A program made the position numbers and the translations under genes. A stretch of DNA of 64,000 bases from Bacilli bacterium. GTDB lineage: Bacteria > Bacillota_I > Bacilli_A > RFN20 > CAG-826. Below the pieces are notes generated by a model, which did no database searches, was not told the DNA's origin, and was given only the letters and a program-made list of their open reading frames with translations. Each line of letters begins with the position of its first letter. The first letter of the stretch is position 1. The stretch is from contig JAZLMH010000012.1 of NCBI GenBank assembly GCA_045598525.1, positions 4,154-68,153 of the forward strand, read 5' to 3'. Below, in pieces: positions 6,748 through 37,961 of the stretch.

Positions 6748-6748
6748 T

Positions 6749-7666
6749 ATGAAGAAGAAACTAATCCTTGGAGCCTTGCTCCCTCTAATGTGCCTCGCTT
6801 CCTGCAAAGGAGAAGCTTTTGCATATAAGCAATTAGACTTATCTAAAGACTATATTTTATATAGAAGCATGGATGCTGAATACGAATCCGATGTTACCGG
6901 AGACACGTACTATAAGACAAAATTAGTCTTCACCACTATCGAGAATGTCATAGAGACGGTCGAATGGGGAGAAGATGTAATGCTTCTTTTCTATGGAGAA
7001 GACTGCGGACCATGCCAGGAAGTTATTCCAAGTCTTGTCAAAGATATCGCATATTTGAAATTAACGATATACGTTATCAATGAAAATACCGCTATGAGCG
7101 CAGCGACACTAAACCGTTATATTGCTGAGAACCATATTAAGAAAATGACATCGGCAGTTATTAATGGTGGCACCCCTTCTCTTTATCTTTTAAACAATAA
7201 GAAGATAACGGAAGTCTTCTATGGATCTAAAGGCGATAAAACTACGGATATAGTTTTCAACGCTTTAAAAGAATACACGACATGCTGCGGATTAATTTAT
7301 GGTTCAGCTGATTTAGGAAGAATTGGCGATTCAAACATCCCAACTTACATCCTTGATAAAAGGAAGCCAGGTAGCACTGGTTATTATTATCAAAACGTTT
7401 TCCCTCTTGCTAAGCGAAGTTCAAAACGTTTCCAAGTCCTAGATGTTTCAAAAGTGGAAAAGGATAGTATAAAAAACACAATTCTTGAACACTTTGGAAT
7501 TAATAGAAGTGTTACCCAGAACTGGAGTTTAGAATCCTTTGATGGATGGATTGTCTATGAGCAAACTTATAGCGCAGGAAATGGAGCGGTCGGTATTAGA
7601 TTAGGCCGCATGCACTACACCGACGCCACTACATCAGATTGGTTAATAGATTACTTCAAAAATTAA
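6749..7666 (+). CDS. lipoprotein with a thioredoxin-fold CGPC domain (extracytoplasmic thiol-disulfide oxidoreductase candidate)
   Basis: Lipobox MKKKLILGALLPLMCLASC at the ATG at 6749; the ORF-track start at 6719 overlaps the rqcH end. Contains LLFYGEDCGPCQEVIP. Confidence 0.7.
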   Translation: MKKKLILGALLPLMCLASCKGEAFAYKQLDLSKDYILYRSMDAEYESDVTGDTYYKTKLVFTTIENVIETVEWGEDVMLLFYGEDCGPCQEVIPSLVKDIAYLKLTIYVINENTAMSAATLNRYIAENHIKKMTSAVINGGTPSLYLLNNKKITEVFYGSKGDKTTDIVFNALKEYTTCCGLIYGSADLGRIGDSNIPTYILDKRKPGSTGYYYQNVFPLAKRSSKRFQVLDVSKVEKDSIKNTILEHFGINRSVTQNWSLESFDGWIVYEQTYSAGNGAVGIRLGRMHYTDATTSDWLIDYFKN

Positions 7667-18790: not shown

Positions 18791-19392
18791 TGTTGTTTTC
18801 TCCTTTTGACTGTTACGGTTTTTTCGTCATGTATTTTGATGAGGTGTGAGTAGCGTTCCACAAGAGGGCGAGCAATTTCTTTGTCTCCTTTGACGGTGAT
18901 TGTTACCTCTTCTTGGAATTCCTCATTCTCGATTGCTACGTTATGGCGGTCTGCTTCTTTTTGAAATGTCGCAAAGTCACTATATGACAAGGACACTCTT
19001 GCTTCGTAGCCTTTTACGAAGTCACACCAAGAAGCTTGTTCTACCGCCTCTAGCCCTACTTCACGGTAAGTTCTAGTTAGGCGTCCTAACCCAAGCTTGG
19101 TTCCGCCAAAATAACGAATTACGACAAGAAGGACATGGTCTACTTCTCTTCCGCGAAGAATCTCTAGAAGAGGTAGGCCAGTACTTCTAGCAGGCTCACC
19201 TTCGTCGCTGCATCTTTCAAAGGGAAGAAGTCTAGCGGCATAAGGATAGTGAGTCGCTTTTGGGTACTCTTCCCTGACTTTAGCTAAGAGGCTGTTGATT
19301 TCCTTTTCATCATCAAAGGGAATAACAAGGCCGATAAATCTAGAGCCAAGGATGACGTATTCATATTTGTTGGTGAGGAATGGGTAGTTCAT
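18787..19392 (-). CDS. yigZ: YigZ/IMPACT family protein (UPF0029)
   Basis: SDEGEPARSTGLPLL and RYFGGTKLGLGRLTRTY motifs. Overlaps the downstream peptidase gene by 4 nt and the giant gene's stop by 1 nt. Confidence 0.8.
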   Translation of the reverse strand: MNYPFLTNKYEYVILGSRFIGLVIPFDDEKEINSLLAKVREEYPKATHYPYAARLLPFERCSDEGEPARSTGLPLLEILRGREVDHVLLVVIRYFGGTKLGLGRLTRTYREVGLEAVEQASWCDFVKGYEARVSLSYSDFATFQKEADRHNVAIENEEFQEEVTITVKGDKEIARPLVERYSHLIKIHDEKTVTVKRRKQQ

Positions 19393-22300
19393 TAGGCGAG
19401 TGATGGGTTAAGGATGATGGCTGCGTTTCTAAGGTAGCCTGTAGCGCCAAATGCTTCAGGGAAGGATGTTGGCTGGGTTCCGAAAGCTCCAGGGTTACTG
19501 ATAAGAAGGATTTCGTAGATAGCTTTTTCATAGTAGCTAGCAACGACGTCTTTATATGGGTAAGCGGCTGGGGCTTCAGAAAGTTCGTTAAGCTTAGCGG
19601 CAATGCCGTTCTTATTTGGCATTCCGGCTGCCTGAGCATCGTTAAGGATTGGCAAGATGTCATTTCTTGTAAGATCAAGGAATCCAATATAGTTGGATGC
19701 GTTTGGAAGGAAGAGAGGGTGCTTAGTTTGATCGCTTGTGAAGTGAGCGCTTAATAAGGCTGCGTCTCTCATATCGGCATAGAATCTACGGGCAAAGCCT
19801 GTTTTGAAGGCTGCCTCGAAGGTATTCCATGAAGCGCTTGTTCCAAGGTATGTTCCAACATGCTCTCCGTTATATGAGAAGGCTGCTGTTGGGATGACAG
19901 CGTATCTGGCTTGAATGTTAGATAAAGCGTTATATGCGCCATAGAAGGTTGCGACTTCAATCATATGGGTGTCTAACCATGCTGATACAGTAACGAGATC
20001 ATCAGCAGAGAAGATGTCGTGTAGGTTCTTATATCCTGGCATGCGGTTAGCCGCGTTATAGTCAGGCATGTATTCAAAGAGGTTGACTGAATAGCTTCCA
20101 AACTGGAATGAGAGGATGCCAGAAGCGCTGACGTCGCCTGCATCGAAATATGCAGAATCTGTCTTGTTGAACTGGCTATCGTACTTCGAGGTGAAGAATG
20201 ATTTATCCGATTTGATGAACCTAACGATCTTTGTGAGCTTTCCAGGTGTTCCAAAGAGTGTTCCAAGAGCGAATGGATCACTTGCGAAGTCAATGTAGCT
20301 ATTTGTCATTTCGCTATAGAAACATCCGCTTGCAACTTCGATAAGCTCATTGATTGCGCCGCTATGGGTTAAACCGTTTTGGACATCAAGTTCAGCCTGG
20401 TTAAGACCGATAATTTTATCAACGCTAAATGTGACTTCGACTTTTGAGATGGTTCCACTTCCAGCAATGGAGACGTCTTTTGCAAGAGGCCTATCCGTGA
20501 TGGATGAGCCGTTGAAGAGAACATATTCATAAGCATTTGGTGCAGGATTTGTTGGGGAAACCGCAAATGTTGAACCGGCTTTCTCATAACTGATTGTTGG
20601 TGCGGCACCGCTAGCCATATAGACTTTGATACCATAAACAGCGTTATCAAGGTCAAGGCTATAAGAAGAAGCGTCAACATCATAAGTTGCTGTGACTTTG
20701 CTAAATTCTTTGAAGTTAATTGTGTCGAGGATTGTCTTCTGGAGTTCGTAAGGAACGAGTTCATAAGCAAGGTCGACTTTGTTTGTTGCGTATAATAACT
20801 CTCCTAATTCGGTTGGTGTCTTGCTTAGGATCTCACTTGAAGAGATTGAGACACCTCCGCCAGAGATGAAGCCAAGATCGATTGCTGTACCAAACAAACC
20901 GCCTGTTAAGTCATCTTTGAGGATGAGATTATCAAGTTCAGTGCCCCACTTGCTGTCCTGATAGTTATTGACCTTATCAAGAATCTTTGCCTGGTATGAG
21001 GCATATTCGCCATCATAAACTTCATTGTATGAAAGTGCGGCTAAACCTGATTGGACATAGAGGTTATACATTGCCTGTTCAAAGACTGGTAAATCGGTGA
21101 CAGTGAAGGAAAGCGAATCATCTGTCTTAAGGAGATAGGAAGCGCCTGCAAGGTGGAATGAGTAAGAATCATCAAGAGCCTTGAGGAAGTTCTTAAGTTT
21201 AAGAATCTGGGTTTTGTTGCTGAGGTTTGTTGTTAACGATGAGTCGGATTTGACGAGGGAGACGATCTTTGCGACAAGCTCGATTTCGTCATCGTCATAT
21301 CTGTTTTCGTAATTGCTGCTCATAAGCATGACACCGGAATTCTCATAGGAGGAACCGCTTAAGGTGATGTTATATTCATATTGGTAATATGGGTTTGCAC
21401 GCTTAAGCTCAACAGCATCAAGAGTCTGAGAGTTGATTGAGCTAGCGATTGCATTAGGAACGATGTCATATGTCCAATCACATTTGTTAAGAGCGTTAAG
21501 GAGGATGCCCATCTGAGACTCGCTTAACGTATCGAATGTGCCATTAGCAAGAGCCGAGGAGAAGCTGCTATCGCTTGTGATGGTGGCTAAAAGCGAACGA
21601 AGTGAATTTGGTGAGGATGGGTCAACTAAGTTAGTGACATCGCTGTTGCTATTTGTGCTGGAGATATAAGGATATGCCTGATTTGCAACATATTTTGCTT
21701 TCTCAAGGGCTGTTACATAGTTAGAAGAATTAGCAGCATCCTTAGGTGAAAGGTTGCTGATGTAATATTCCTTAAGAGCGTCTCCGCCAAATAAAGCACC
21801 CATAACATCCTGAAAGACACTTGTGGTTGCCTCTGATTTGAGGGTGTTAAAGATATTGCTTTGAGCGAAATCCGCTAAAAGGCCTGTAACATTATCGACG
21901 TCGCTAGCTGTTAAGGATGAAATATCAGATAAATCAAGAGAACCGAGTTTAGATGCTTTGCCAAGGATTGAAGCAAGTCTAAAGCATTCGTCTTCATCAT
22001 AGGCGTTTGTTGCATAGTTATATGTATCTACGGTGCCTTTGCCTGCGTAGTAAGTGTTAGCGTTTGTTAAGGAGATGCCGCTTCCTGCAAGGGATCCGCT
22101 TGTTAAGCTTGATAAAGCGCTATCGAACTTCTCTGGGAGCCCAGGATAAAGAAGGCGACTTTCATTAATGTGCATGAGGAGGTTTCCGACAATGTCTTCG
22201 CCATATTCTTTTTCGGTGAAATAGCTATCGAATGATAATCCGCCAGAAATCTCTGATCCCATTGAATGGAAGTCATTAAGAACTTTGCTGAATCTATCGA

Positions 22301-25300
22301 TTTCAATATCCCATCCACCGTTTGCTCTAACATCAGCGTCGATAAGAGGGAGGATTGCTTTTGTTCTTGCCTCTGTTCCATACCAGGAAACACCGCTGAT
22401 TGCGAATTCGATTTGGCCAAGGAATGTTGACTGGGTGATGCCCGCAACGTTTTCCTGGAAGGTTGAAAGGGTTGTGAATGCCTCGGTGCTATTAAGAGCT
22501 TTAAGCATTGGAGCGACAAAGCGATTAGCATCGAGCTTCTCCATCTGAGAGAGCTTAGCTGTATCAAGTTTTCCTGCCGAATCAAGAAGGCCGGTAACTG
22601 GATCGGTGGTGACTTCTAAAATGGTGAGAATTGCATCTCCGATAACTCTACGTTCTGCAATGTCGTTTGTCTGATATGCAAACATGACGTTGGTGTGGCC
22701 AAAAGCCTCACTAGTTGGTGCAAGCATGTTTGCGATTGTTGAAAGAATCTGAGTGATGCCTGTGCGGCCTAAGAGGATTGACTCAGACATATTGTCGAGA
22801 AGTGATTTTAAGTATGGTGTTTTGAAATCGCCAAGATTAGCGTCAATTCCATCAATCATGAGGGCAAGAGCGCCAGATGAAGCGATGCATCTGATAATTT
22901 CCGCTAATCTAACACCTTCTTCTTGGAAGGCCGCTTGGCCTATAGCGACATCAGCCATGCTTCCGCCTTCGATGGCGTAGCTAAGAACATCGTTTTTGAT
23001 TGTGAGATAAGATTCATCGAGCGAAGGGTCTTTGCTTTGTGTTTTGTAAACGCCGCCGTCATATGTTTCTTCGACATCGGTGAAGAATCTTCCAATATCC
23101 CCTGCTCCTTTAGCGAGTTTGACGATCTTGGAAGCAAGGTAGTTAGGGAAGATCCATTTGACTGTATTGCCTGCATCTGGCTGAACGAATAATTGTGAAC
23201 CTGCAAGGTAATTGAAGAGGGTTGTGATCATTTCTGGATCAAGAGACTCTAAAGCAATCGAGGAAATATCTCCGACAATTGATGCATATTTCGTCATTGT
23301 GTCAAGGGCAGCGCCTTCGGCACCCCAATCAGTGACGTTCTTGAATGAGAGCTGGATAGTATTTCCTGATTCATCAACATAGTTGAAGACTGCGTTTGTT
23401 CCAATTGCCCCATCGACGATATCACCCATGATGGTCTTTAGGAGTTCGCTAGAGCCGACTTTGCCAAAGAGTCCGGCAAAAGAGATATTTGACATCATGT
23501 CTAAAGACAGGCCTGATGAGAATGTTGCGAGAAGCTTTTGATCACAAATATATTTGATGAAGTCGACAAAGCCGTTGATTTCGGAATCAAGGTCAAATGC
23601 CTCATCCATGATGACCGCTTTAAGGTTAGCCTTCATTTCTTCATTGCCTAAACCTGTAGAATCGAAAATCATCTGGAAGATGCTATAGATGCTTTCATTA
23701 TATAGAGGCATGCCATGGTCATCGCCAATTGGGTTAAAGATTTTGCTTTCGCCAATGCCAATTAAGAATTTAGCGAGCTGAGGTTCGTTAGAAGCTGTCT
23801 TTAATTGGCAAAGAGCTGAGAAGGTTTTCTCTAAAGCAGCCATGTCGCTTGTGCCGCTAAATGCGCTCATGAGATAAGTCACGACATCTTGGCATTCTGA
23901 ATAGACGCCGATGATTTTTGCAAGTTCATTGCCAAGGATGGATTTGCCGTCTGCATCTTTTGGTACAAGGTCTAATTTGAGGTCAAGGCCAAGTGATGAT
24001 TTAAGGAATCCATCATCCCCTCCAACAAATTTGTTGAGAATTGAAGGGAGGAGATTAGAGAAGATTTTTGAGTTATCGATTGATTTGATGCTTTGTGCTA
24101 AAGCTTCGAGCAATCCGTCTTTAGCGCCTAAGAAGGAGCCGTTCTTATCAAAATATAAGCCTGGAAGATTATCGAAGTCTGAGATTAAGGCTTTGCCTTC
24201 TTCGCTTGCCGCTAATGGGCGGATGACACCAAGAAGATTCTTTGTTTCTTCTTTTGCAGCTTCTTTTTTGCCTTCTAAGTCTTTTGACTTATAGTCGTTA
24301 ACTATTGAAGATAGGTCAATTTTGTCTGCGCCCTCTAAACCAATAGATAAATTGATGGAGTTTTCAAGAATATTGAGGAAGGCTGGGACAGCATTAGCGA
24401 TGAGGCTAGAATCGAGCAAACATTTCTTATCGCTTTCAAGCCCTCTGCCGTCGATAAATTTTTCAACATTGTCGACGTTATTTAAAACAAGAGTGACAAG
24501 GCCGTTGATTTGTTCTTCACCGAAAGAGCCTTCTTCTTCAAATGCTGGAGTGAGAATGAGAGGGAGGAAGCCACTATCGAAATGAGCGAGATCAAAGACC
24601 ACGTCGAAGATAAGTCTGAGTTCATCAACAAAGTTGATGTTTTTGATTGATGAAGGGATGGCGACTGGGCGGCCTTCTGGTGTGCAGTTAAGTTCGTCGC
24701 CTTTTAATTCAGGGAGAAGGTCTTTTAATCCGATGACAATCGTTCCGTCGGCTGCTTCTTCTGCTAGTTTGTATTCTTTGACTGCCTGGACATAGATTGC
24801 GCTGGTGATTAGGTCATTAAAGAAAGCTAGCTCATCTGAGCCTAATGTCTCAAAGAGTGCGTCATAAGTTGCCTGATATTGAGGATCAAGCATCGAGGTG
24901 ACGGTTTCTTGGTTGAAGACGAATTCGCCTGTGATGTCATCGATTGTCACATTTAAGATTCCTGAATCGATGATTGTTTCATAGAGGTCAGCAAGCTTAT
25001 TGAATGTTCCTGCGTGGTCATAGTGAGAAACATCAATTCCTTCTTCAGTCAAAACATATTGGGCGACATCGTCAAAGTGGAGCAATGCGTCAAAGAAGAC
25101 TGGCGCGATTTCCTGGACGAGTTGGGACTGACCGATAGCGCGGAGGAGTTTTGGAGCGTACTGGGAGGTTGCGAAGACCGCAAGAGATTGAGAATCGAAA
25201 CCTTTATCTCCAAGGAGTCCACTATCGATTGCATAGCTTGCGATTTTAATGACTTGGGACAATTCGTTAACGATTGTGAATTTGTCGCCATTTGAAAGGT

Positions 25301-26129
25301 CGATGGTTGAGATGTATGTCATGAAAGCTTCGTCAAATCTCATGCCTGTTTCGCCATCTGCGTACCAGGAGAAAAAGACTTTGCTGAATGCTGAATTGTC
25401 GTAAGTGTCAATTAAACCCGTGATTGTTTGGTAAACGTTTGAATCCACAACAACACGGTTGGAGCTTTCTTCTTCCTTAGGGATTCTTTCAAAGCTTCTG
25501 CTTAAGTTGTTAGCCAAGCTTGTAAGCGGGGAGATGAACATCGCCAAAACGACAACCGACGTGATTGCTTGTTCAAATCCAGAAAGGACTTTGAGGTTCT
25601 TTTTCTTTCTTGCCTCTTTTGGAATGAACCATTTGAAGAGGGCGTGCCAAAGGATTAAGCAAAGGAGGTTGCCGACGATTGCGATGACGATAGCCTCGAC
25701 AATAAGAGCAATGATTGAAGCAAAGGAGAGAGCGATAGCTAAAGCGTATTCCGTGATAGCGGCTGGATCTGCTTTGATGCTAAACGCTTTAAGAAGCTGG
25801 GAGATAACATCTGTTCCTGTTTCTCGGATCGTCGTTAATGGCGACTCAATAAGCACAACGTTCGAATCGATTTCCATTTCGAAAGAAACCGTTTGGTTGA
25901 AGCCGGTCAAACTAAAATCAGCGATTGCTCCGCCAAGAGACTTGAGCGCGAATAACCCGCCCGCGATTAAAAAAGCGAAGAAAACGAAACGGAAAGTACC
26001 ATATTTCCAGCCTTGTAAAAGACCGCGTAGAAAACCGAGGATGAGAACAAGGAACACAAGCCCGAATAAGACCCACATTCCGATGTCAAAGTAGTGAATA
26101 ATTGCTTCTGGGTTAAAATTGAGATCCAT
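19392..26129 (-). CDS. giant (2245 aa) membrane-anchored protein of unknown function, with a CvpA-like multi-TM N-terminus
   Basis: Uninterrupted 6.7-kb ORF. The first ~200 aa carry 4-5 TM helices (VLFGLVFLVLILGFLRGLLQGWKYG...). The remainder has no motif I recognise. Confidence 0.85.
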   Translation of the reverse strand: MDLNFNPEAIIHYFDIGMWVLFGLVFLVLILGFLRGLLQGWKYGTFRFVFFAFLIAGGLFALKSLGGAIADFSLTGFNQTVSFEMEIDSNVVLIESPLTTIRETGTDVISQLLKAFSIKADPAAITEYALAIALSFASIIALIVEAIVIAIVGNLLCLILWHALFKWFIPKEARKKKNLKVLSGFEQAITSVVVLAMFISPLTSLANNLSRSFERIPKEEESSNRVVVDSNVYQTITGLIDTYDNSAFSKVFFSWYADGETGMRFDEAFMTYISTIDLSNGDKFTIVNELSQVIKIASYAIDSGLLGDKGFDSQSLAVFATSQYAPKLLRAIGQSQLVQEIAPVFFDALLHFDDVAQYVLTEEGIDVSHYDHAGTFNKLADLYETIIDSGILNVTIDDITGEFVFNQETVTSMLDPQYQATYDALFETLGSDELAFFNDLITSAIYVQAVKEYKLAEEAADGTIVIGLKDLLPELKGDELNCTPEGRPVAIPSSIKNINFVDELRLIFDVVFDLAHFDSGFLPLILTPAFEEEGSFGEEQINGLVTLVLNNVDNVEKFIDGRGLESDKKCLLDSSLIANAVPAFLNILENSINLSIGLEGADKIDLSSIVNDYKSKDLEGKKEAAKEETKNLLGVIRPLAASEEGKALISDFDNLPGLYFDKNGSFLGAKDGLLEALAQSIKSIDNSKIFSNLLPSILNKFVGGDDGFLKSSLGLDLKLDLVPKDADGKSILGNELAKIIGVYSECQDVVTYLMSAFSGTSDMAALEKTFSALCQLKTASNEPQLAKFLIGIGESKIFNPIGDDHGMPLYNESIYSIFQMIFDSTGLGNEEMKANLKAVIMDEAFDLDSEINGFVDFIKYICDQKLLATFSSGLSLDMMSNISFAGLFGKVGSSELLKTIMGDIVDGAIGTNAVFNYVDESGNTIQLSFKNVTDWGAEGAALDTMTKYASIVGDISSIALESLDPEMITTLFNYLAGSQLFVQPDAGNTVKWIFPNYLASKIVKLAKGAGDIGRFFTDVEETYDGGVYKTQSKDPSLDESYLTIKNDVLSYAIEGGSMADVAIGQAAFQEEGVRLAEIIRCIASSGALALMIDGIDANLGDFKTPYLKSLLDNMSESILLGRTGITQILSTIANMLAPTSEAFGHTNVMFAYQTNDIAERRVIGDAILTILEVTTDPVTGLLDSAGKLDTAKLSQMEKLDANRFVAPMLKALNSTEAFTTLSTFQENVAGITQSTFLGQIEFAISGVSWYGTEARTKAILPLIDADVRANGGWDIEIDRFSKVLNDFHSMGSEISGGLSFDSYFTEKEYGEDIVGNLLMHINESRLLYPGLPEKFDSALSSLTSGSLAGSGISLTNANTYYAGKGTVDTYNYATNAYDEDECFRLASILGKASKLGSLDLSDISSLTASDVDNVTGLLADFAQSNIFNTLKSEATTSVFQDVMGALFGGDALKEYYISNLSPKDAANSSNYVTALEKAKYVANQAYPYISSTNSNSDVTNLVDPSSPNSLRSLLATITSDSSFSSALANGTFDTLSESQMGILLNALNKCDWTYDIVPNAIASSINSQTLDAVELKRANPYYQYEYNITLSGSSYENSGVMLMSSNYENRYDDDEIELVAKIVSLVKSDSSLTTNLSNKTQILKLKNFLKALDDSYSFHLAGASYLLKTDDSLSFTVTDLPVFEQAMYNLYVQSGLAALSYNEVYDGEYASYQAKILDKVNNYQDSKWGTELDNLILKDDLTGGLFGTAIDLGFISGGGVSISSSEILSKTPTELGELLYATNKVDLAYELVPYELQKTILDTINFKEFSKVTATYDVDASSYSLDLDNAVYGIKVYMASGAAPTISYEKAGSTFAVSPTNPAPNAYEYVLFNGSSITDRPLAKDVSIAGSGTISKVEVTFSVDKIIGLNQAELDVQNGLTHSGAINELIEVASGCFYSEMTNSYIDFASDPFALGTLFGTPGKLTKIVRFIKSDKSFFTSKYDSQFNKTDSAYFDAGDVSASGILSFQFGSYSVNLFEYMPDYNAANRMPGYKNLHDIFSADDLVTVSAWLDTHMIEVATFYGAYNALSNIQARYAVIPTAAFSYNGEHVGTYLGTSASWNTFEAAFKTGFARRFYADMRDAALLSAHFTSDQTKHPLFLPNASNYIGFLDLTRNDILPILNDAQAAGMPNKNGIAAKLNELSEAPAAYPYKDVVASYYEKAIYEILLISNPGAFGTQPTSFPEAFGATGYLRNAAIILNPSLA

Positions 26130-29278: not shown

Positions 29279-29303
29279 TAAAAAAAGAAGGGTATCCCCT
29301 TCT
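29279..29303 (-). terminator. intrinsic terminator ending the 33598-29305 operon
   Basis: On the minus strand: AGAAGGG-GATA-CCCTTCT followed by TTTTTTT. Confidence 0.8.
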
Positions 29304-29304
29304 G

Positions 29305-29595
29305 TTACTTAAGAGGTTCCTTCTTTATTGTTTTTAAGAAATAGAGAATGACGACTACGGCGTTTATCATGAATAGCATTACCATGGGAAGGACGATCAA
29401 AAATTTAAAAACATCAGGGTTTTGCTGTAAAAATCCTATGTAATTGTCTGGATAATGGCCAAGCGCCTGTTCGATCTTATCTGGCAAGGTCACAATCATG
29501 ATGATTGAGGTCAAGAGGAAAAAGAGCGATAAGAGGACATCCAAACTGAAGAAGACTCCAGTGACTATTTTCTTTTTGTTTAATGTTATTTTCAT
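29305..29595 (-). CDS. small (96 aa) two-TM membrane protein, last gene of the riboswitch-led operon
   Basis: ATG at 29595, 2 nt after the stop of the 1052-aa gene. Two hydrophobic helices. Confidence 0.6.
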   Translation of the reverse strand: MKITLNKKKIVTGVFFSLDVLLSLFFLLTSIIMIVTLPDKIEQALGHYPDNYIGFLQQNPDVFKFLIVLPMVMLFMINAVVVILYFLKTIKKEPLK

Positions 29596-29597
29596 GC

Positions 29598-32500
29598 TTA
29601 CCACGTTGACTCCACTGAGGCTGGAACAGACACCGTTGGCGTGGCTCCAGCTACTAATTCAAATTCTCCTGTTGGAGTAGTTTTGACATAGACATTATAT
29701 TCAGACGAATAATAGTTAAAGATTTTTAAGGACGCTTCTTTATCTGCATAGCAGGTGATGAAATATGTGCCTTTCTTTGAGCCTTCTACATCTTCTGCAT
29801 ATTCTTCGTTTTTGACGTATCTGACATTTGTTAAATATGTGTAGTCGACATAATCGCCGCCGGCTGTTGGGTTTTCTAAGAAGAAATTAAGGATGGTGTT
29901 ATCAATTGTGTCTGTAGCGTTTCTATAACCAATCTGACCGAAAGAACCACCGAAACCGTCTTGAGCCTTATACTCGAAGTCGATGTTAGTGATCCAGGTG
30001 TCGTTTCCTCTATTGGACTGGCCGCCAAGAACAAGGATATATGTATCAATCTTGACTTGTTCTTCTTTGGTCATGGATGTCGTGCCATCAGAATTATATG
30101 TGCCTAAAACTCTTCCTTCGGCATCTAAAGCGCAGTACGAGACTTTCTGGACGTCTTCTTCCATGAGGTCTAAAGAAATGTTATGAGTAACATTAATAAA
30201 CCCAGTGTCTTCTGATTCAACGATGTTTGTTCCTGCACTCTTCAAAGACATAAACTCATTGCCTTTTTTGAATGAAGGATCAACTAGGTCCAACGAGTAA
30301 CCTAAGATGGTTGCTTGGACATAGGTAAAGGAGATCTTACCTAAAGCATCGTTTCTTCCATCGACTGCGTTAGATGTGTTTTTCAAATAAACGACAATGG
30401 AACTTCTACAGTTTTCCTCTGCAAAGAACAACTGGCCTTTTGCTGGTGCTGGGCCTACAAATTCACCTGCTGTTCGTTCGGAATTTAAAGAAAGAACAGC
30501 GATTGAGATTCTATTTCCTAAAAGACTGAAGTTTTGATAATAGAACTCTGCTCCACCACCTACGACATCGATATTCTTTGAACGATATCCGGACTCACGA
30601 ACTAATGTTTCTTCTGAAACAAAGTATTCTTTTGTTTGTGGGTTTTGAAGAACATCCCTTCTAATGATGACCAATTTCCAGACAGGTAAACTGCCGTTAA
30701 ACCCAGGTGTATATAAGAAGCTTGTGTTATATGACTCGTTTATTTCAGGGATTGTGACAAAAGCATCTTGCTCAACACCATCAATAACTTCCTTAAATAA
30801 TATAGGGGCCTCAAATGTTCTTGGGTCAACGTGAGGGAGAGTTTCATTTGGATTGAAAGTAAAGGTCGTTCTCTCAACCCTGTCGTTAGAAACTTTGATT
30901 AATGCGTTGTAATTTGTTTGATCTGTGTTTGAGTCGATTTTTGTAAAATCGTTTCCAACATCTAAATGAACACCCTGAAGAGTATCGTTAACAACAATCT
31001 CTTTTTGGCTAAGTTTTCCAGTTGTTGCGTCATATCCTCCACAGACGTAGGACGCTCTTCTTGTGCCACCGCCCCAAGGATAAGTGAATGAGAAGATGAT
31101 TGAATAATGATGTCTGCCTTCTTGTATGTTTTGAAGATGGATTGTGTTTGCCTTGAAATTTAAATTGTACCAAAGAACATTGGTACGAGTTGCTGTGAAA
31201 GTGAAAGGAATATTTATGTAATTATTTGCGGTTACTCTTCCGCCAGGATCTTTTGTGTAACCATCCGCATCCCAATATAATCTAGCGTCAATTGAGACGT
31301 TTCTTTCTGAAATTCCACCGATTTTGATTTCGTCGATGTTAAAGGTAAAATCCTCAATATTCAAATCAAAATCATAGACGTCATAACCAGAGATAACTTG
31401 TCTATCAAAAGATTCGCCATACATGAAACAATGGTTTTTTTCGCTCCAATAGTAATATGGGGTTGGAGCTTCTTCTCTTGTTTCGGTGTTAACAATTAAA
31501 CCTTCACCTGAGCCTTTAAGAGAGTGGTCATAATATAACGGTTGGTTAACAGGTGCTTTGATTGCGCCGTCGTGGGAAGTATTGCTTCCGTCATTATCCA
31601 TGTATCCTCTATCTTGGTAATAGACATTGTATTCATGCTTTTGCTCAACAAATTCAGGCGAAGCATAACCAGATGTCGATAAAGAGTAACCATCTTGAAT
31701 TAAATATGTGCCTGAACCTGCTGCTCTATCTGGCGCGATCGCATTTGAGAATGGGACAATATGTTGGCCGTCAGTGGTCATTCTCTTTGTTTTATCGCCA
31801 TCGTCATTTGGGGTTTCATTATATGTTGCTCTTGTGTTTCTTAAGACGAGCTGCTGATTTTTGATTGAATCATAGGTCGTATTGAAATAGTTATAGACGG
31901 CCTGTGAATTTAAGGAGAATTGGTAGTCACGGCCATAACCTAAACCGCCGCCTAAAGCATCTTGCTCTGCTCTGCCATAGTAACCGTAGTTATTGATGTG
32001 AAGGCCGCTTGTTGTACCTTTAAGAGTGCAGTTATTAACATATACGTTCTGGAAGTTTTGTGTCTCATCTAAGTGACCTGCGATATAACCAAAATGGACT
32101 GCGCCTTTCTGGTGGACGTGTCCTGTTTCGGCATTTAATTCATCTTCTGTTGGTTCGGTGTAATGTGTACCTGTTGTATCAATGATGAAGTCGCTGAAGT
32201 ATGTGTTTAAGCAAGTGCCATGACCGACGAAGCCAAAAATACCGATATCGCAGAATTGGTCTCTTGTCGCGTCAATATGGAATCCGGAAACAGTCATGTT
32301 GTTTCCCTCGATATGCGCGTTAAATGGTTTTTTAACGGAACCAAGAGGGGCTAAGGAAGCGATACGGTCACAGTTAAGAATCTTTGAATAACCATTTCCT
32401 TCTGAATTATCGACTTTACCATCTTTGTAGTTATAGACTTCGATTGTTTCTGGATTGCCATCAAGGTCGGTGCCGATTTCAAAATAGAATTCCTTTTCAG

Positions 32501-32756
32501 CAAAACCTTCGAGGTTATAGTGAAGAAGGACCATGTTTTCGTAGTGTCTAGGTCTAGTGATGATGAATGGATGCTCTTCTGAGCCGTCGCCATCATGGAA
32601 ATATTTCTGAAGGACTGAGCCGGTTAAACCATCTTCTATATCAATTTTGTTCTCGTTATAGAACCAAGCAGCAGAAAGACCGCTTGCGACAAGGAGAGCC
32701 CCTGAGCAAACGGCGGAGACTAATAACACTAATTTGGACTTTAATGATTTTTTCAT
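29598..32756 (-). CDS. large (1052 aa) exported or N-terminally anchored protein; putative adhesin or matrix component with a SipW-type 'AAWF' N-terminus
   Basis: N-terminus MKKSLKSKLVLLVSAVCSGALLVASGLSAAWFYNE, followed by GDGSEEHPFIITRPRHYENM...IEGNNMTVSGFHID...IGIFGFVG (beta-helix/GLUG-like start). GGAGGG RBS. TAATG overlap with the upstream gene. Confidence 0.8.
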   Translation of the reverse strand: MKKSLKSKLVLLVSAVCSGALLVASGLSAAWFYNENKIDIEDGLTGSVLQKYFHDGDGSEEHPFIITRPRHYENMVLLHYNLEGFAEKEFYFEIGTDLDGNPETIEVYNYKDGKVDNSEGNGYSKILNCDRIASLAPLGSVKKPFNAHIEGNNMTVSGFHIDATRDQFCDIGIFGFVGHGTCLNTYFSDFIIDTTGTHYTEPTEDELNAETGHVHQKGAVHFGYIAGHLDETQNFQNVYVNNCTLKGTTSGLHINNYGYYGRAEQDALGGGLGYGRDYQFSLNSQAVYNYFNTTYDSIKNQQLVLRNTRATYNETPNDDGDKTKRMTTDGQHIVPFSNAIAPDRAAGSGTYLIQDGYSLSTSGYASPEFVEQKHEYNVYYQDRGYMDNDGSNTSHDGAIKAPVNQPLYYDHSLKGSGEGLIVNTETREEAPTPYYYWSEKNHCFMYGESFDRQVISGYDVYDFDLNIEDFTFNIDEIKIGGISERNVSIDARLYWDADGYTKDPGGRVTANNYINIPFTFTATRTNVLWYNLNFKANTIHLQNIQEGRHHYSIIFSFTYPWGGGTRRASYVCGGYDATTGKLSQKEIVVNDTLQGVHLDVGNDFTKIDSNTDQTNYNALIKVSNDRVERTTFTFNPNETLPHVDPRTFEAPILFKEVIDGVEQDAFVTIPEINESYNTSFLYTPGFNGSLPVWKLVIIRRDVLQNPQTKEYFVSEETLVRESGYRSKNIDVVGGGAEFYYQNFSLLGNRISIAVLSLNSERTAGEFVGPAPAKGQLFFAEENCRSSIVVYLKNTSNAVDGRNDALGKISFTYVQATILGYSLDLVDPSFKKGNEFMSLKSAGTNIVESEDTGFINVTHNISLDLMEEDVQKVSYCALDAEGRVLGTYNSDGTTSMTKEEQVKIDTYILVLGGQSNRGNDTWITNIDFEYKAQDGFGGSFGQIGYRNATDTIDNTILNFFLENPTAGGDYVDYTYLTNVRYVKNEEYAEDVEGSKKGTYFITCYADKEASLKIFNYYSSEYNVYVKTTPTGEFELVAGATPTVSVPASVESTW

Positions 32757-33598
32757 TAGTTGGTCCCTCCTGCATAGAATTGGAGTTTAGTGATATCGCA
32801 GATAAAAGAGATTGAATAAGATTCGAGGTTATCAGCAGTAGCCTTTTCATCCGAAGAGTGTTCGAAATAGTAGTCGACAAGAGTGTCTTTGTAGAAGTAT
32901 TCAAGATACAAGACAGTGACTTGGTCATCTGCTGTTTCGTCTACGTCCAAATTATTGAAGATGATTGTGTTATCTTCGACTTTGGTGCCGACTTCTTGAC
33001 CTAAGGCTCCGCTAAGAGAGACGTAGCTCTTAGTATCGTCAATGCCCTCAAAGACTTTGTAGGCGCTATCATAAATTGATTCAGCGCTTGATTCATCAAA
33101 TGCTGAAGGATTTGCTAATTCGTGTCTAAGGAAGTATTTGAAGCCAATGATGTTTGACATGTTTCTAGTAACCATTGATTGGTTATCAAGGAATGAGCCA
33201 GAACAAGGCACCCTTAAAGAGAAACGGGAAGATGCATCTGTTGTTCCGTTTGATTTAACTTCGATTCTTAAGACTTTGTTGTTATAAACGTTTCTTTCAG
33301 GAATGAAAGAGTCGTATTGAGGGAGGGCGAACTTAGAAGTGAAGACATCATTTTTGTCTTCGTCTTTGATTACTCTATCTTCTGCTACTCTGCCAGTAAG
33401 GTTATCTTGATCATATTCGTAGACCTGGAAATCTACATCGAGGGCATCGTCATCTGAGACAGCGAATGCCTGAGTTGCTGCTTCAGCGTTTCTAATGGTT
33501 GTGAACCAAGCGGCAGTTAAGGAGACAAACATGGTTGCACAGGAAAGGATGGTCAATCCAATAAGACCAGCCGCCTTTGCCTTGTACTTTCTTTCCAT
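32756..33598 (-). CDS. 280-aa exported protein with a SipW-dependent-type signal peptide (TasA/camelysin-like candidate)
   Basis: N-terminus MERKYKAKAAGLIGLTILSCATMFVSLTAAWFTTIRNAEAATQAFAVSDDDALDVDF resembles the ..GTxA[YF]F[TS]D.. class. AAGGAG RBS 9 nt upstream. Confidence 0.75.
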   Translation of the reverse strand: MERKYKAKAAGLIGLTILSCATMFVSLTAAWFTTIRNAEAATQAFAVSDDDALDVDFQVYEYDQDNLTGRVAEDRVIKDEDKNDVFTSKFALPQYDSFIPERNVYNNKVLRIEVKSNGTTDASSRFSLRVPCSGSFLDNQSMVTRNMSNIIGFKYFLRHELANPSAFDESSAESIYDSAYKVFEGIDDTKSYVSLSGALGQEVGTKVEDNTIIFNNLDVDETADDQVTVLYLEYFYKDTLVDYYFEHSSDEKATADNLESYSISFICDITKLQFYAGGTN

Positions 33599-33636: not shown

Positions 33637-33666
33637 AAAAAATAAAAACCAACCCAATGAGTTGGC
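33637..33666 (-). terminator. leader (attenuator) terminator upstream of the 280-aa gene
   Basis: On the minus strand: GCCAAC-UCAUUG-GGUUGG followed by UUUUUAUUUUUU. It lies 38 nt upstream of the start codon, so it is within the 5' UTR. Confidence 0.6.
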
Positions 33667-33730
33667 AGCTGGCTACCCCGAAGGGCCCTTTAGTTTTGCG
33701 TCACTAGATTTCTCTAGTTTTGCTTTTTAC
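33664..33730 (-). promoter_or_regulatory. candidate c-di-GMP-I (GEMM-I-like) riboswitch aptamer
   Basis: Minus-strand RNA AAGCAAAAC-UAGA-GAAA-UCUA-GUGACGCAAAACUAAAGGGCCCUUCGGGGUAGCCAGCUGCC. It contains GCAAAC-like, GNRA-hairpin, GACGCAAA and AGCC..CUGCC blocks. Its 3' end overlaps the terminator's 5' arm. Confidence 0.45.
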
Positions 33731-33737
33731 ATTCATA

Positions 33738-33765
33738 ATTATATCCAAGACCAATTAATTATCAA
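33738..33765 (-). promoter_or_regulatory. promoter TTGATA-N16-TATAAT driving the riboswitch leader
   Basis: Near-consensus hexamers on the minus strand, about 140 nt upstream of the ATG at 33598. Confidence 0.55.
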
Positions 33766-33902: not shown

Positions 33903-35099
33903 TTAGTGAATATCGGCCACTAAAGGATGGATGTCTGCGTTGCCTTGGATTCTTGCTCTTCCGCCTACTGGAACACCATCTGAATCAGTATCGAGAACGA
34001 AGCTCATTTTTGTGTTATTCATCTTTTCGTCATGCTTGTTTGCATGGGTTGCTTTGTTTAAATAATTGCCCTCAAGCATATACGAGACCTTGTTTGTTGT
34101 ATCGAGGTCATAGGTGTATTGAGTAACTGAGTTGTACTTAACGGCGATATGTGTTGTTGTTCCTGTTACCGTTCTTTCATAAACAATCTCGTCACCATAT
34201 GTGGCATTGAATGTTTTGACAGCCTCTGTGTTTGTAGGATTCATCAAAGTGATAGTGAATTCCTTATATGACTTATCGTATGCTGACTCAAATTCGAGTT
34301 TGAGACTATTGCTTGAAAGCTTCCCAAGTTCAACCCATTTGTCTCCATCGCTGATGAAGGTGTCATATGCTGGCATATGATCAACTAAAGATTTGTCTAA
34401 GTAAATGACGCCTGCGTTGCCTGCTGCATCCCCTGCTTCTGGAGAACCTAAGCCCCAAGCTGGTTGACCCGCGTTCGTTCCTGATTTCCAAACATAAGCA
34501 GGCGATTCTGAAGCGACAAATTTGTGCTTTGCTGAAGCCGTGTCTTTTGAAAGAGTCCAGCCAGCGAAATTATAGTTATTGTAGTATTCAGTTTTTTCTT
34601 CGACAGGATTGGTTGAAGGGAAAGAAAGAGCAGTTCCAAAATCCACTTTTGTTCCTCCAGCGATGGCTTTGCCATCATTTTTGAAGGATGTTTCTATTTT
34701 GTATGCTTCTTCTTTGAATGTTGCGACGACCTTGCAGTTGCTTTGAATGTTATTTAAATCGACTGCCTGACCATCTAATTCTTCTTTAGCATTTCCATAA
34801 GTTTTGTCGTATGTTCCAACCCATTCATCAAAAACGTATCTGCTCCCTGGGTTTGTAATTTCTAAATCACTATGAGGATTCCAGTCGTAACTGGTTCCAT
34901 CCATTGGTCTGAACGGTCCCGATTTTCCCTCGATGACATATGCGTAACCGACCTGAGTTCCTGCCTCATCAAAGTAGTCAACCTGATAAACCGGGGAGCC
35001 TTTGTGGTTTTCATCACCTTCGGTGGCACATCCAAATAATGCCCCTGTTAGCAATAAACTGCTGAGCATTAAAACTTTTTGGAACTTGGTTTTTTTCAT
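33903..35099 (-). CDS. surface lipoprotein (398 aa) with F-x-GW beta-repeat-like segments
   Basis: Lipobox LLLTGALFGCATEG. Contains RYVFDEWVG and YNFAGWTL, reminiscent of Listeria-Bacteroides-type repeats. Confidence 0.6.
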   Translation of the reverse strand: MKKTKFQKVLMLSSLLLTGALFGCATEGDENHKGSPVYQVDYFDEAGTQVGYAYVIEGKSGPFRPMDGTSYDWNPHSDLEITNPGSRYVFDEWVGTYDKTYGNAKEELDGQAVDLNNIQSNCKVVATFKEEAYKIETSFKNDGKAIAGGTKVDFGTALSFPSTNPVEEKTEYYNNYNFAGWTLSKDTASAKHKFVASESPAYVWKSGTNAGQPAWGLGSPEAGDAAGNAGVIYLDKSLVDHMPAYDTFISDGDKWVELGKLSSNSLKLEFESAYDKSYKEFTITLMNPTNTEAVKTFNATYGDEIVYERTVTGTTTHIAVKYNSVTQYTYDLDTTNKVSYMLEGNYLNKATHANKHDEKMNNTKMSFVLDTDSDGVPVGGRARIQGNADIHPLVADIH

Positions 35100-35769: not shown

Positions 35770-36258
35770 TTAAAATGAGAGCGATTGTTCAATGGACTTC
35801 TTTAGAAGTTCTTTATTATCTATATCGCTAGTCAATACGCTTCTAATAAGCATCGAAAGAATATCGGGGTTTATTGCAGATCTCTTTAAAGCAGATACGT
35901 AATCTTCCTTAGAGACAAGACACCAATCCACTCTGGCTTTTACGTTCTTAACTAACAACATGTCAAGCCAAAGCCTCATGGCGAAGTCATTCCCTTCTTT
36001 AAAAGGATGGGCGATATTCATCTCTATATATTTATTAATAATGTCGTCAAATGAACATTCCGGCATTCTCTCTACAATCTTTAAGGTATCAGGAAGGAAC
36101 ATTGGGCTTTCAAAGATGAAACCATCCTCCTTTACCACTTCTTTTCTGATTGTTCCTGCATCCAAGAAAACGCCTTCAAAGAGTGATTTATGAATCTCTA
36201 TTAACGTTAGTTCTTTATCAAAGAGAGAGATTGCTCTTTCTATTACTAAGTCTTTCAT
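35770..36258 (-). CDS. Fic/Fido-domain protein with a degenerate active-site motif (HPFKEGNDFAMR)
   Basis: IHKSLFEGVFLDAGTIRK plus HPFKEGNDFAMRLWL, compared with the canonical HxFx(D/E)GNGRxxR. Overlaps the upstream gene by 4 nt. Confidence 0.7.
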   Translation of the reverse strand: MKDLVIERAISLFDKELTLIEIHKSLFEGVFLDAGTIRKEVVKEDGFIFESPMFLPDTLKIVERMPECSFDDIINKYIEMNIAHPFKEGNDFAMRLWLDMLLVKNVKARVDWCLVSKEDYVSALKRSAINPDILSMLIRSVLTSDIDNKELLKKSIEQSLSF

Positions 36259-36710
36259 ACAATCCTATCTATATTCTTGAGAATATCTTTGCAGCAATCA
36301 ACAATCTCTCCTAGGACTTCATCGAATTCCCCTGTATACCATGGATCGCTTATTTCACCTAATCTTGGAGTGAAAACGGAAAGAGGGTGACAGATTCTTC
36401 TAATGTCAGCGATTCTATATGTTAAGAGCCTGATATTAGATTCATCCATGTAGAAGATGGCGTCAGCGTGATCGTAATCTGCCTGGGTGATTTTCATCGC
36501 GGTATGTCTTTCAAATGGGATGCCCGCATCTCTTAATGCGCGTTTCATTGGGGGATAAATATCGTTTCCTTGTTCTTCGCTAGAAGCGCCTCTAGAGAAA
36601 ACATGGAAGTCTTTTTCTCTTCCTTCTTTCTTCAAAAGGTCTTTGAAGACATATTCTGCTGCTGAGCTGCGACAGATATTGCCATGGCATAAGAATATTA
36701 TAATTTTCAT
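36255..36710 (-). CDS. low-molecular-weight protein-tyrosine phosphatase
   Basis: CX5R(S) P-loop CHGNICRS at the N-terminus, and DPWY (Asp general acid) near the C-terminus. Confidence 0.88.
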   Translation of the reverse strand: MKIIIFLCHGNICRSSAAEYVFKDLLKKEGREKDFHVFSRGASSEEQGNDIYPPMKRALRDAGIPFERHTAMKITQADYDHADAIFYMDESNIRLLTYRIADIRRICHPLSVFTPRLGEISDPWYTGEFDEVLGEIVDCCKDILKNIDRIV

Positions 36711-37162
36711 TCTTCTCCTCCTTTTGAAAACTTGTATCCTCGCGATTTAAGGCCTTCGATTATCTTATCAACGCATTCATCAAGATGCTTATTAATCTCA
36801 TTTCCCCAGAAACGGTATATGAGATAACCTTCTTTCGTTAGCCTTTCGTTCACTTCATTGTCTCTTTGAATATTCCTTCTAATTTTAGGAATCCAATAAG
36901 ATGTATTGCTCTTAATTTTGCTAATGTTCTCTTCGAAATCTTTGCCATGCCAGAACTCAGAGTCTGCAAAGACAACGACTTTAACGCTTTTAAAAGAGAT
37001 ATCTGGATGTCCAAAAATGTATTTGCTGTTGCAGCGATATCTGCAGCCTCTCTCATATAGGGCTTTCCTTAATTTAATTTCGATTGAAGTGTCTTTGCCC
37101 CTGATTCTGCTCATGGTATATGACACTGTTGCTTCATCACGCTCCATAAGTAAATGAGACAA
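36707..37162 (-). CDS. vsr: very short patch repair endonuclease
   Basis: MSRIRGKDTSIEIKLRKAL, GHPDISF, FADSEFWHG and W..KI..N..RD motifs. The start may instead be the ATG at 37147. Confidence 0.85.
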   Translation of the reverse strand: MSHLLMERDEATVSYTMSRIRGKDTSIEIKLRKALYERGCRYRCNSKYIFGHPDISFKSVKVVVFADSEFWHGKDFEENISKIKSNTSYWIPKIRRNIQRDNEVNERLTKEGYLIYRFWGNEINKHLDECVDKIIEGLKSRGYKFSKGGEE

Positions 37163-37961
37163 AAATCTCCCCTTCTATTTCTTTTTCCTCAAGATTAAGT
37201 TTCTTGATGTTTCCAAGGAACGTATATTTTGAAGAATATGAATCAACTCGATTGTTCGAGCATTTGACTGTTAATGATTTGATGGTTGCGTTTGCGGGGA
37301 ACGCATTCTCGCCCGCATAGAGCTGGGTGATAGGCAATGAGGCGCCTTTGAAAGTGACTTCAAGATTATCTTCTTTGTCGCTAAGGGCTTCAAAAGAAGT
37401 TAAACCGTTGGTTTTATTTGGTGTGGCCGGCGTGCCAATGGAAGAGATCCACTGCGAACAAAGAGAAAGCGCTTCTAGGCTATTTGAATGAATTAACGAT
37501 GGAAGGTTGATAAAACTAGCAAGGTAAGAATCAGTCGTTGGCGAATAATAGTGAATGGTGTTCTCATCTTGGACGATGTATTTATTATTTTCACGGGATA
37601 CTTTGGCTCTCATTTCTACATCTTCCTGATCCTTGAACATATGAGTATCGGTCCAATCGTACTTGATTGAATACTCGGTTTTATCATCGTCAAGGCGATA
37701 TGGGGCTGTGTATTTGACATCGACATTTGATTTTCTTGTGATTGTCTTGTTCCATCCATCGCTTACGTATTCTTCAATATGCGACGAGAAAGAATAGTCA
37801 GTAAATTCGACTTTAAAATCGTTTTGCTCAGCAATGAGGTTTTCTATTTTTTGAGTTGCGGTATCAAGGTTGATGCCAAGCATTTTTGTGTTTGCACAGC
37901 CAAAAAGAAAGGATACTCCTGAAAGAATTAAAAGCGTTTTTGCTAGTGATTTCTTATTCAT
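37137..37961 (-). CDS. lipoprotein of unknown function (274 aa)
   Basis: Lipobox LILSGVSFLFGCANT. Starts 3 nt after the ABC gene's stop, and its 3' end overlaps the vsr start. Confidence 0.7.
   Translation of the reverse strand: MNKKSLAKTLLILSGVSFLFGCANTKMLGINLDTATQKIENLIAEQNDFKVEFTDYSFSSHIEEYVSDGWNKTITRKSNVDVKYTAPYRLDDDKTEYSIKYDWTDTHMFKDQEDVEMRAKVSRENNKYIVQDENTIHYYSPTTDSYLASFINLPSLIHSNSLEALSLCSQWISSIGTPATPNKTNGLTSFEALSDKEDNLEVTFKGASLPITQLYAGENAFPANATIKSLTVKCSNNRVDSYSSKYTFLGNIKKLNLEEKEIEGEIFVSFTYGA

Follow-up and report, generated by a model that had tools for sequence, protein, structure and literature searches.

A three-gene operon with a cyclic di-GMP riboswitch and a shared N-terminal AWF motif in a Bacilli bacterium

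A minus-strand operon of three genes lies in the 64,000-nucleotide stretch of DNA analysed here (hereafter the window), which comes from a Bacilli bacterium (contig JAZLMH010000012.1 of assembly GCA_045598525.1). According to the list of open reading frames (ORFs), the operon encodes a small partner protein of 280 amino acids (aa; 33598..32756), a large partner protein of 1052 aa (32756..29598) and, in the same transcription unit, an accessory protein of 96 aa (29595..29305). The third ORF is given as 99 aa in the mechanical ORF list, where it starts at an upstream GTG, and as 96 aa when counted from the ATG. Both partner proteins start with a basic stretch, about 22-24 hydrophobic residues and then the motif [ST]-x-A-W-F. 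The leader of the operon contains a riboswitch for the second messenger cyclic di-GMP (c-di-GMP).

Operon layout and riboswitch leader

The small and large genes are joined at GGAGGGACCAAC-TAATG, where the stop and start codons overlap by 1 nt and a ribosome-binding site lies upstream, and the large gene passes into the third through TGG-TAA-GC-ATG, a gap of 2 nt. Directly 3' of the third stop codon, sequence reading and a terminator scan both place a G+C-rich operon terminator, the hairpin AGAAGGGGATACCCTTCT followed by T7 (29303..29286, minus strand). The translationally coupled layout described in an original prediction for this DNA can therefore be read in the sequence in all its parts, from the overlap and the gap to the terminator. 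The same holds for its third gene, as the 96-aa product is predicted to have two transmembrane segments and the terminator follows it. This protein has no family match in Pfam or NCBIfam. Among related loci (designated here by L and a number), L006 (90 aa) and L001/L004 (121 aa) are the only ones with a homologue, and because it is kept in the closest relatives only, it is best regarded as a lineage-specific accessory and not as a core part of the system.

Upstream of the small gene, a candidate sigma-70-like promoter, TTGATA-16 nt-TATAAT (33738..33765, minus strand), is assigned from its consensus match (11/12 positions). It ends 4 nt before the start of the aptamer, a spacing that fits a riboswitch leader. 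The aptamer (33734..33661, minus strand) was identified with the Rfam covariance model for c-di-GMP-I riboswitches (RF01051), with a full-length match to model positions 1-87 and a score of 56.5 bits against a gathering threshold of 35. It is followed by a leader intrinsic terminator, the hairpin GCCAACTCATTGGGTTGGT with a T-run (33637..33666, minus strand; folding free energy -8.7 kcal/mol). This hairpin (GCCAACUCAUUGGGUUGGU plus U-run in the transcript) has the last 6 nt of the aptamer as its 5' arm. This use of the aptamer's own 3' strand, CCAGCUGCC, as the terminator arm is also found in L006, L009, L010, L011, L015, L016 and L017. Because the two structures share this strand, aptamer and terminator are mutually exclusive, and the riboswitch is therefore probably an ON switch in which ligand binding blocks termination.

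A gene encoding a predicted 398-aa lipoprotein (33903-35099, minus strand) adjoins the promoter on its upstream side. It was considered as an operon member and rejected, being outside the promoter and riboswitch and not syntenic in relatives.

A scan of species-representative genomes retrieved 15 loci, all from uncultured metagenome-assembled genomes (MAGs) labelled Bacilli, Bacillales, Candidatus Enteromonas or Candidatus Fiminaster equi, with sources such as horse faeces and yak omasum. In 13 of them the large gene is immediately preceded by the small one; L016 and L017 have the two genes apart, each under a riboswitch of its own. The order riboswitch-small-large was also found in four loci reached via distant family members (L019, L020, L021 and L023). 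Counting 13 of the 15 genome-scan loci and these four, 17 of 19 related loci have a c-di-GMP-I aptamer, in some cases its GGC variant, ahead of the pair. GGDEF/EAL genes flank the module in L001/L004, L005, L010, L011, L015, L018, L020, L021 and L023. The small/large pair and the riboswitch are thus conserved together in many uncultured gut Firmicutes. The second-messenger control that had been proposed for the operon is upheld by the aptamer score and by the retention of the aptamer across these loci.

Several of the related loci differ in the details of the arrangement. For the leaders of L003, L007, L010, L017 and L023, the best-scoring model is that of the c-di-GMP-I-GGC variant (RF03167, 59.7-63.8 bits, slightly over its gathering threshold of 59) and not RF01051. 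In L019 (257-500), the leader of the pair holds two consecutive GEMM-like aptamer sequences by eye and may be a tandem riboswitch; cmscan at the gathering threshold gives one aptamer only (320-393). A gene for 'ScmC' (PF27840) beside the module in L019 was set aside as a probably unrelated neighbour, the literature offering nothing useful on it. L001/L004 (GCA_024408305.1, 14012-18472) has, behind the first pair, another that is divergent (265 aa and 1066 aa) and has a separate c-di-GMP riboswitch; it is followed by the 121-aa homologue of the two-transmembrane-segment protein, and the MAG contig carries four riboswitches in 20 kb. In the distant module of L023 (9077-13444, ENA ERZ27317991), a c-di-GMP-I riboswitch of the GGC variant precedes genes for a small protein of 241 aa (FVGTYAWFQ) and a large one of 1147 aa. 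This copy lies among sugar utilisation genes (GH31, GH28), with GGDEF/EAL nearby and no SipW-type gene within 10 kb. The module therefore extends past the Bacilli MAG lineage.

The shared N-terminus and the two protein families

A six-frame translation of the 64 kb contains the sequence AAWF at two places only, namely residues 29-32 of each of the neighbouring partner proteins. The motif reads T28-A-A-W-F-T33 in the small protein (33500..33517, minus strand) and S28-A-A-W-F-Y33 in the large protein (32658..32675, minus strand), with a predicted cleavage at A30|W31 in both. Among the window ORFs, these two are the only ones in which a hydrophobic N-terminus is followed by [STAC]x[ASG]W[FLIYM]. 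Word-indexed searches gave 15 sequences for the small family and 26 for the large family. In the 15 homologues of the small protein, A30, W31, F32 and T33 are invariant while the rest of the hydrophobic stretch varies freely; in 25 homologues of the large protein, W31 and F32 are at least 90% conserved at a mean column identity of 34%. The pattern in the homologues of both proteins is [ST]-x-[AS]-W-[FLY], and of 164 sequences from the wider large-protein family, 152 contain the motif. In these 152 sequences, P3 is S or T in 80%, P1 is A in 81%, S in 14% and G in 5%, P2' is F in 72% and otherwise L, Y or I, and the median position of the W is 29.

When the small and large families are compared profile to profile, their sole similarity is a run of 17 columns that covers positions 21-37 of each (E = 8.5e-5). 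For two further AWF proteins, encoded in L001, the resemblance to the small and large families is confined to the first ~50-60 residues. The shared N-terminus, recognised in the original prediction as an AAWF sequence after the hydrophobic helix of both proteins, is thus conserved in the homologues of both and is family-defining. Its pattern reads as a signal-peptidase site that is followed, unusually, by two aromatic residues. Three other sorting classes were considered and rejected. In a type IV prepilin, the motif would come before the hydrophobic core, whereas here it comes after; a conserved Gly and Glu5 are also missing. For a lipoprotein, a consistent lipobox around Cys20 of the small protein is lacking, further hydrophobic residues come after this cysteine, and distant homologues do not have it. 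For sortase (LPXTG) sorting, the C-termini (..YAGGTN and ..SVESTW) carry no sorting signal.

The best comparison for such a site is TasA, which is cleaved at GGGTWA|AFND by the endoplasmic reticulum (ER)-type signal peptidase SipW (PMC10269814). TasA is refractory to Escherichia coli LepB, and residues from P3 to P4' contribute to this resistance, including the P2 tryptophan and the P2' phenylalanine (PMC10269814). The TasA fibre chain in the Protein Data Bank (PDB; 8AUR) starts at A28. In an hhalign comparison of a 33-sequence small-family profile with the TasA precursor, T28-A-A|W-F falls on T25-W-A|A-F, an alignment whose probability of 1.6% gives it no statistical weight. The likeness to the TasA signal therefore lies at the level of the pattern only: a basic n-region, a hydrophobic core, small residues at -3/-1 and an aromatic residue at P2'.

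Behind the signal-like N-terminus, the large protein continues with a GSVLxxYFHxGDGSxxxPFxITRPxHYENM box, a GLUG-type module and ~750 aa of beta-rich domains. Homologues are numerous: an exhaustive profile search, which was applied to the large family only (the small-family count being that of the word-indexed search), detected 3,884 representative clusters (50% identity) at E<=1e-3 and 301 at E<=1e-30. The distant members are 700-2,200 aa long and most share only the first ~265 profile positions, that is, the signal-like N-terminus, a highly conserved GSVLxxYFHxGxGTxxDPFVITRPxHYxNL box and the next module. No Pfam or NCBIfam family matches the large protein at E<=1, with Glug (PF07581), Peptidase_M26_N (PF05342) and Beta_helix all unmatched. 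Ten distant family members have no Pfam match either, and the family profile has 0 matches among PDB sequences at E<=10.

The module at residues ~134-250 (LAPLGSVKKPFNAHIEGNNMTVSGFHID...IGIFGFVG...GYIAGH...NVYVNN; 32007..32357, minus strand) is assigned by transitive homology to a GLUG/Peptidase_M26_N-like type. Positions 118-236 of the large-family profile match nine repeats each in the giant proteins P0158 and P0170, with per-domain E-values of 7.7e-8 to 1e-13, one spurious stretch aside. These giants carry Pfam Glug (E = 2e-32 and 1e-56) and Peptidase_M26_N, and the aligned motif is ..PlG...PFxGxfdGNgytIsNfki....vGlFG... Because the family profile matches repeats that bear Glug and Peptidase_M26_N, a GLUG-type ancestry of the N-terminal module is supported, though only transitively. 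The earlier description of the large protein as a beta-helix/GLUG-type surface protein is thus retained for GLUG by way of P0158 and P0170, whereas neither Glug nor Beta_helix is matched directly. The AlphaFold2 model of the large protein is nearly all beta (predicted local distance difference test score, pLDDT, 79.2; predicted template modelling score, pTM, 0.44). Searched as a whole multidomain model with Foldseek against PDB and BFVD, it gave only generic beta-rich matches of low TM-score (<=0.1), among them Cry11Aa, GH43 C-terminal domains and phage tail proteins.

Signal peptidases in related loci and the fate of the N-terminus

A SipW-like protein of 229 aa, with the motifs DSMEG...THRI...TKGDNN, was recognised in L018, in the same island as the module. 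Using this protein as a tblastn query, homologues were found in L010, L011 and L015, 2.5-3 kb upstream of the riboswitch-small-large unit. The serine motif of these SipW-like genes is DSMEG, NSMEP or PSMET, not [GS]SM.P. The four peptidases tested (L018, L010, L011 and L015) score 57.7-80.3 bits with TIGR02228, the archaeal-type signal peptidase I model (cutoff 51.85), have NF046067 ('signal peptidase I SipW') as their best or co-best match and have an invariant Ser and His at the expected catalytic motifs. L020 and L021 have two SipW-type genes each in the same island as the pair, and in L021 a c-di-GMP riboswitch stands immediately before one of them. The island cassette comprises genes for EAL, a 247-253-aa transmembrane protein, a 246-323-aa protein (..SSTYAWFS..) and SipW, with its own riboswitch.

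Proteins of this last kind form a third AWF family of 246-336 aa, starting ..[ST]STYAWFS or GTVAWFTAS, that has no member in the window (L018 5573-6544, L020 8970-9845, L021 3036-3776 and L001 18736-19671). They usually lie in a riboswitch-led cassette of EAL, a 247-aa transmembrane protein, the AWF protein and SipW, and they may be the true fibre subunits of the system.

Two further genes are always found beside the SipW-type genes, one for a membrane-anchored McrB-like AAA+ protein of 510-513 aa (MDxFLxWFF...) and one for a DUF2357 protein of 541-1736 aa (L010 543-6076, L011 3-5848, L015 57-5887, L018 7621-9974, L020 10703-13881 and L021 4950-9986). The two may belong to an export and assembly island, or they may represent a restriction-like system that has come along by descent; the window has no homologue of them.

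The reading that we favour, with moderate confidence, is that the operon is induced by c-di-GMP and encodes two proteins that form an extracytoplasmic module with SipW-like processing, most probably an adhesin at the surface or part of the matrix. Under this proposal, high c-di-GMP would bind the aptamer and hold its 3' strand, so that the leader terminator could not form and transcription would read through. The small and large proteins would then be translated in a coupled fashion and in fixed proportion, and both would be exported by Sec. The motif would serve as the recognition and cleavage site (A30|W31, with small -3/-1 residues and an aromatic P2') of an archaeal/ER-type, SipW-like peptidase encoded elsewhere in the genome. 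The mature beta-sandwich small protein and the multidomain GLUG large protein would act together outside the cell, as a complex or a matrix component, with the two-transmembrane-segment protein as a lineage-specific accessory. The ON logic, the cleavage, the presence of the peptidase in this genome and the adhesin or matrix role are what we infer here. SipW-type processing is partly supported, by association in relatives.

Several observations weigh against this proposal. The ON logic is deduced from the structure overlap, and five relatives have no terminator, their start codon lying 2-21 nt past the aptamer instead. L012 and L013, both Candidatus Enteromonas MAGs, have the pair with no c-di-GMP riboswitch even at E<=0.1; c-di-GMP control may have been lost or replaced in this group. 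TIGR04088, the model of the SipW-cognate signal, has no match at E<=1 in either window protein and none at E<=10 in ten N-terminal fragments of family members. It stays below its cutoff of 19 bits on every sequence tested, the best being the distant large-family member P0146 (14.4 bits, E = 0.033, residues 10-42). As the original prediction had stated, the window has no sipW-type peptidase: tblastn with four SipW-type queries gives no match there, and Pfam scans of its 44 ORFs reveal no S24/S26 domain. The Pfam scans are weak evidence because Pfam misses the L018 peptidase, and the tblastn negative is the stronger of the two. By tblastn, there is likewise no SipW-type peptidase in the examined parts of the closest relatives (L001/L004, L005 and L006), and of the 2,314 proteins in a SipW-alignment search, none is traceable to this organism or to the MJ220, MJ228 and MJ238 MAGs. 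Foldseek gives nothing convincing on the function of either partner protein. The suggestion of a SipW-dependent signal thus has partial support, from the site pattern, the register with TasA and the peptidases near the module in relatives; it fails as regards the curated signal model.

The hydrophobic stretch, at ~22-24 residues, is also long enough for a membrane anchor, and in the AlphaFold2 models the helix runs unbroken through the motif, although at low confidence (residues 3-43 of the small protein and 3-34 of the large). Together with the absence of SipW from the window and the closest relatives and the unmatched TIGR04088, this would fit the main rival, in which both proteins are surface-displayed type II membrane proteins with uncleaved signal anchors and A-W-F forms an interfacial aromatic belt or a helix-helix contact that pairs them, c-di-GMP control being unchanged. 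A retained helix would explain surface attachment, since a C-terminal anchor is absent from both proteins, and the window encodes other large N-terminally anchored proteins and many lipoproteins. The co-transcribed two-transmembrane-segment protein could perhaps join such a pairing, but most relatives lack it. The conservation, moreover, sits at the C-terminal end of the hydrophobic segment, whereas the rest of the helix varies; the -3/-1 residues are small and the W, at 29-31, is at a typical cleavage-site position. ER-type signal peptidases stand beside AWF genes in six loci, sometimes with their own c-di-GMP riboswitch. On balance, we consider uncleaved anchors rather unlikely, while taking them more seriously than the other rivals.

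Comparison with known surface systems and implications

The original prediction had also read a TasA-like pattern in the small protein and proposed a matrix-fibre or adhesin module. In its fibre form, the small protein would be a TasA/CalY/camelysin-type subunit assembling by donor-strand exchange and the large protein a minor or tip component. The signal-site register matches that of TasA, a strand-prone segment (QAFAVSDDDALDVDF) comes after the motif and leads into a beta-sandwich, and SipW-dependent fibre proteins without TasA-like amyloid-dye binding are known, for example BsaA (PMC7395162). The comparisons of the mature protein go the other way. The small protein has no Pfam or NCBIfam family at E<=1, Peptidase_M73 included, and its family profile has 0 matches at E<=10 among PDB sequences, a library in which TasA is present. 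With hhalign, the probability of a match to TasA is 0.14%, or 1.6% with the 33-sequence profile, and the aligned part is the signal region only. The AlphaFold2 model (pLDDT 74.4, pTM 0.73) is a beta-sandwich after an N-terminal helix, with residues 1-46 below pLDDT 50. It has no PDB match at E<=1e-3 with Foldseek; the TasA fibre 8aur_A ranks ninth (E = 0.068, probability 0.30, TM-score 0.26-0.30) amid generic Ig-like, jelly-roll and beta-sandwich structures. The strict 1:1 coupling to a 1052-aa partner is also unlike a major-subunit gene.

In these sequence and model comparisons, the small protein has no detectable relationship to TasA/camelysin, so that the TasA-like reading of it is not sustained. 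A TasA-type fibre appears very improbable. Of the matrix-fibre or adhesin module, what survives is a c-di-GMP-controlled two-protein module, a probable adhesin or matrix component; the TasA-type fibre finds no support in the hidden Markov model (HMM), profile and fold tests. That the motif is a chance or compositional resemblance between mere neighbours is scarcely credible, since, for all that it is four residues long and matched by no curated signal-peptide model, the conservation data contradict this idea: both six-frame copies fall at the same residue numbers, the motif is near-invariant in families of such low identity and present in nearly all of the 164 wider relatives, and pairing and riboswitch are conserved in about 20 loci.

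Judged from sequence, then, the module is not of the TasA/camelysin family and does not match the curated SipW-cognate signal model, while sharing several traits with the SipW matrix systems, tapA-sipW-tasA of Bacillus subtilis and sipW-bsaA of Clostridium perfringens. Small -3/-1 residues and an aromatic P2' are common to them (TWA|AF in TasA; TAA|WF and SAA|WF here), and the signals are of similar length (27 residues in TasA and 30 here). Also alike are the ER/archaeal-type peptidase genes beside substrate genes (here in relatives) and the co-transcription of two exported partner proteins; the link to a biofilm or adhesion lifestyle is suggested here by the c-di-GMP control. The mature proteins, by contrast, have no detectable relationship to TasA in HMM, profile-profile and fold comparisons, P1' is W in place of A/Y, and no acidic or N/D residue comes after it. 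No peptidase is found in the operon or the window, and one partner is a 1052-aa GLUG-type protein. Furthermore, the SipW matrix systems are under protein regulators, SinR in the case of B. subtilis tapA-sipW-tasA, whereas here a c-di-GMP riboswitch takes this place. In C. perfringens, sipW-bsaA is controlled by BsaRS (PMC7395162). In the limited library of literature that was searched, no paper links SipW-type export to a c-di-GMP riboswitch.

Riboswitch-controlled adhesins are the second group for comparison. Those of Firmicutes, for example CbpA of Bacillus thuringiensis and c-di-GMP-regulated surface proteins of Clostridioides difficile, have known Pfam domains and are collagen-binding or similar proteins anchored through LPXTG and sortase. 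As in the present system, a gene for a large surface protein carries a GEMM-type riboswitch in its 5' leader, with a probable ON response to c-di-GMP (PMC7423583; PMC7865049). The present system differs in lacking a sortase signal and any known domain, in its obligatory small partner gene and in an N-terminal signal of a distinct class. The GLUG/Peptidase_M26_N regions of streptococcal IgA1/Zmp proteases and other Firmicute surface proteins share with residues ~134-250 of the large protein the pattern ..PlG...PFxGxfxGNgxtIsnfxi....iGiFG.v....i.N.y... Here, however, the module is single, N-terminal and unscored by Pfam, and no M26 metalloprotease catalytic domain was found.

Elsewhere in the window, a 2245-aa ORF (19392-26129, minus strand) with an N-terminal membrane segment and no Pfam domain at E<=1e-3 encodes a large uncharacterised envelope protein. 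Three predicted lipoproteins have no family match, the one encoded next to the promoter and two others at 37137-37961 (minus strand) and 6719-7666 (plus strand); the lipoboxes of these proteins are ..LFGC or ..LASC. A 1952-aa helicase-nuclease protein with DUF4011, AAA_11, AAA_12 and MTES_1575 domains (49510-55368, minus strand) is defence-like in appearance, and a small cluster at 35770-37162 (minus strand) comprises genes for Fic, a low-molecular-weight phosphotyrosine phosphatase and a Vsr endonuclease.

A broader reading, which we put forward tentatively as a possibility, is that the [ST]-x-A|W-F N-terminus constitutes a separate, uncatalogued class of sorting signal for dedicated ER-type signal peptidases. 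Together with the c-di-GMP-I riboswitches and GGDEF/EAL genes, the AWF families (the small/large pairs and the 246-336-aa 'STYAWFS' proteins) would then be members of one c-di-GMP regulon, serving a surface fibre or adhesin apparatus of a new kind in gut Firmicutes not yet cultured. To the GLUG giant, the small protein would be a dedicated partner, as chaperone, nucleator or anchor, acting through its newly exposed N-terminus.

Two families for which neither Pfam nor NCBIfam has a model form an obligate pair that, in gut bacteria for which no culture exists, is tied directly to c-di-GMP by a riboswitch. The large family alone accounts for thousands of clusters in public data, and the module is well conserved, widespread and unannotated. 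If A|W-F is indeed a SipW-type site, the substrates of ER-type biofilm signal peptidases would extend far past TasA-like fibres, and the motif would provide a usable signature for annotation pipelines. With its riboswitch, a leader of reporter size and two candidate adhesin genes, the module offers a handle on the switch to an attached lifestyle in reduced-genome gut Bacilli.

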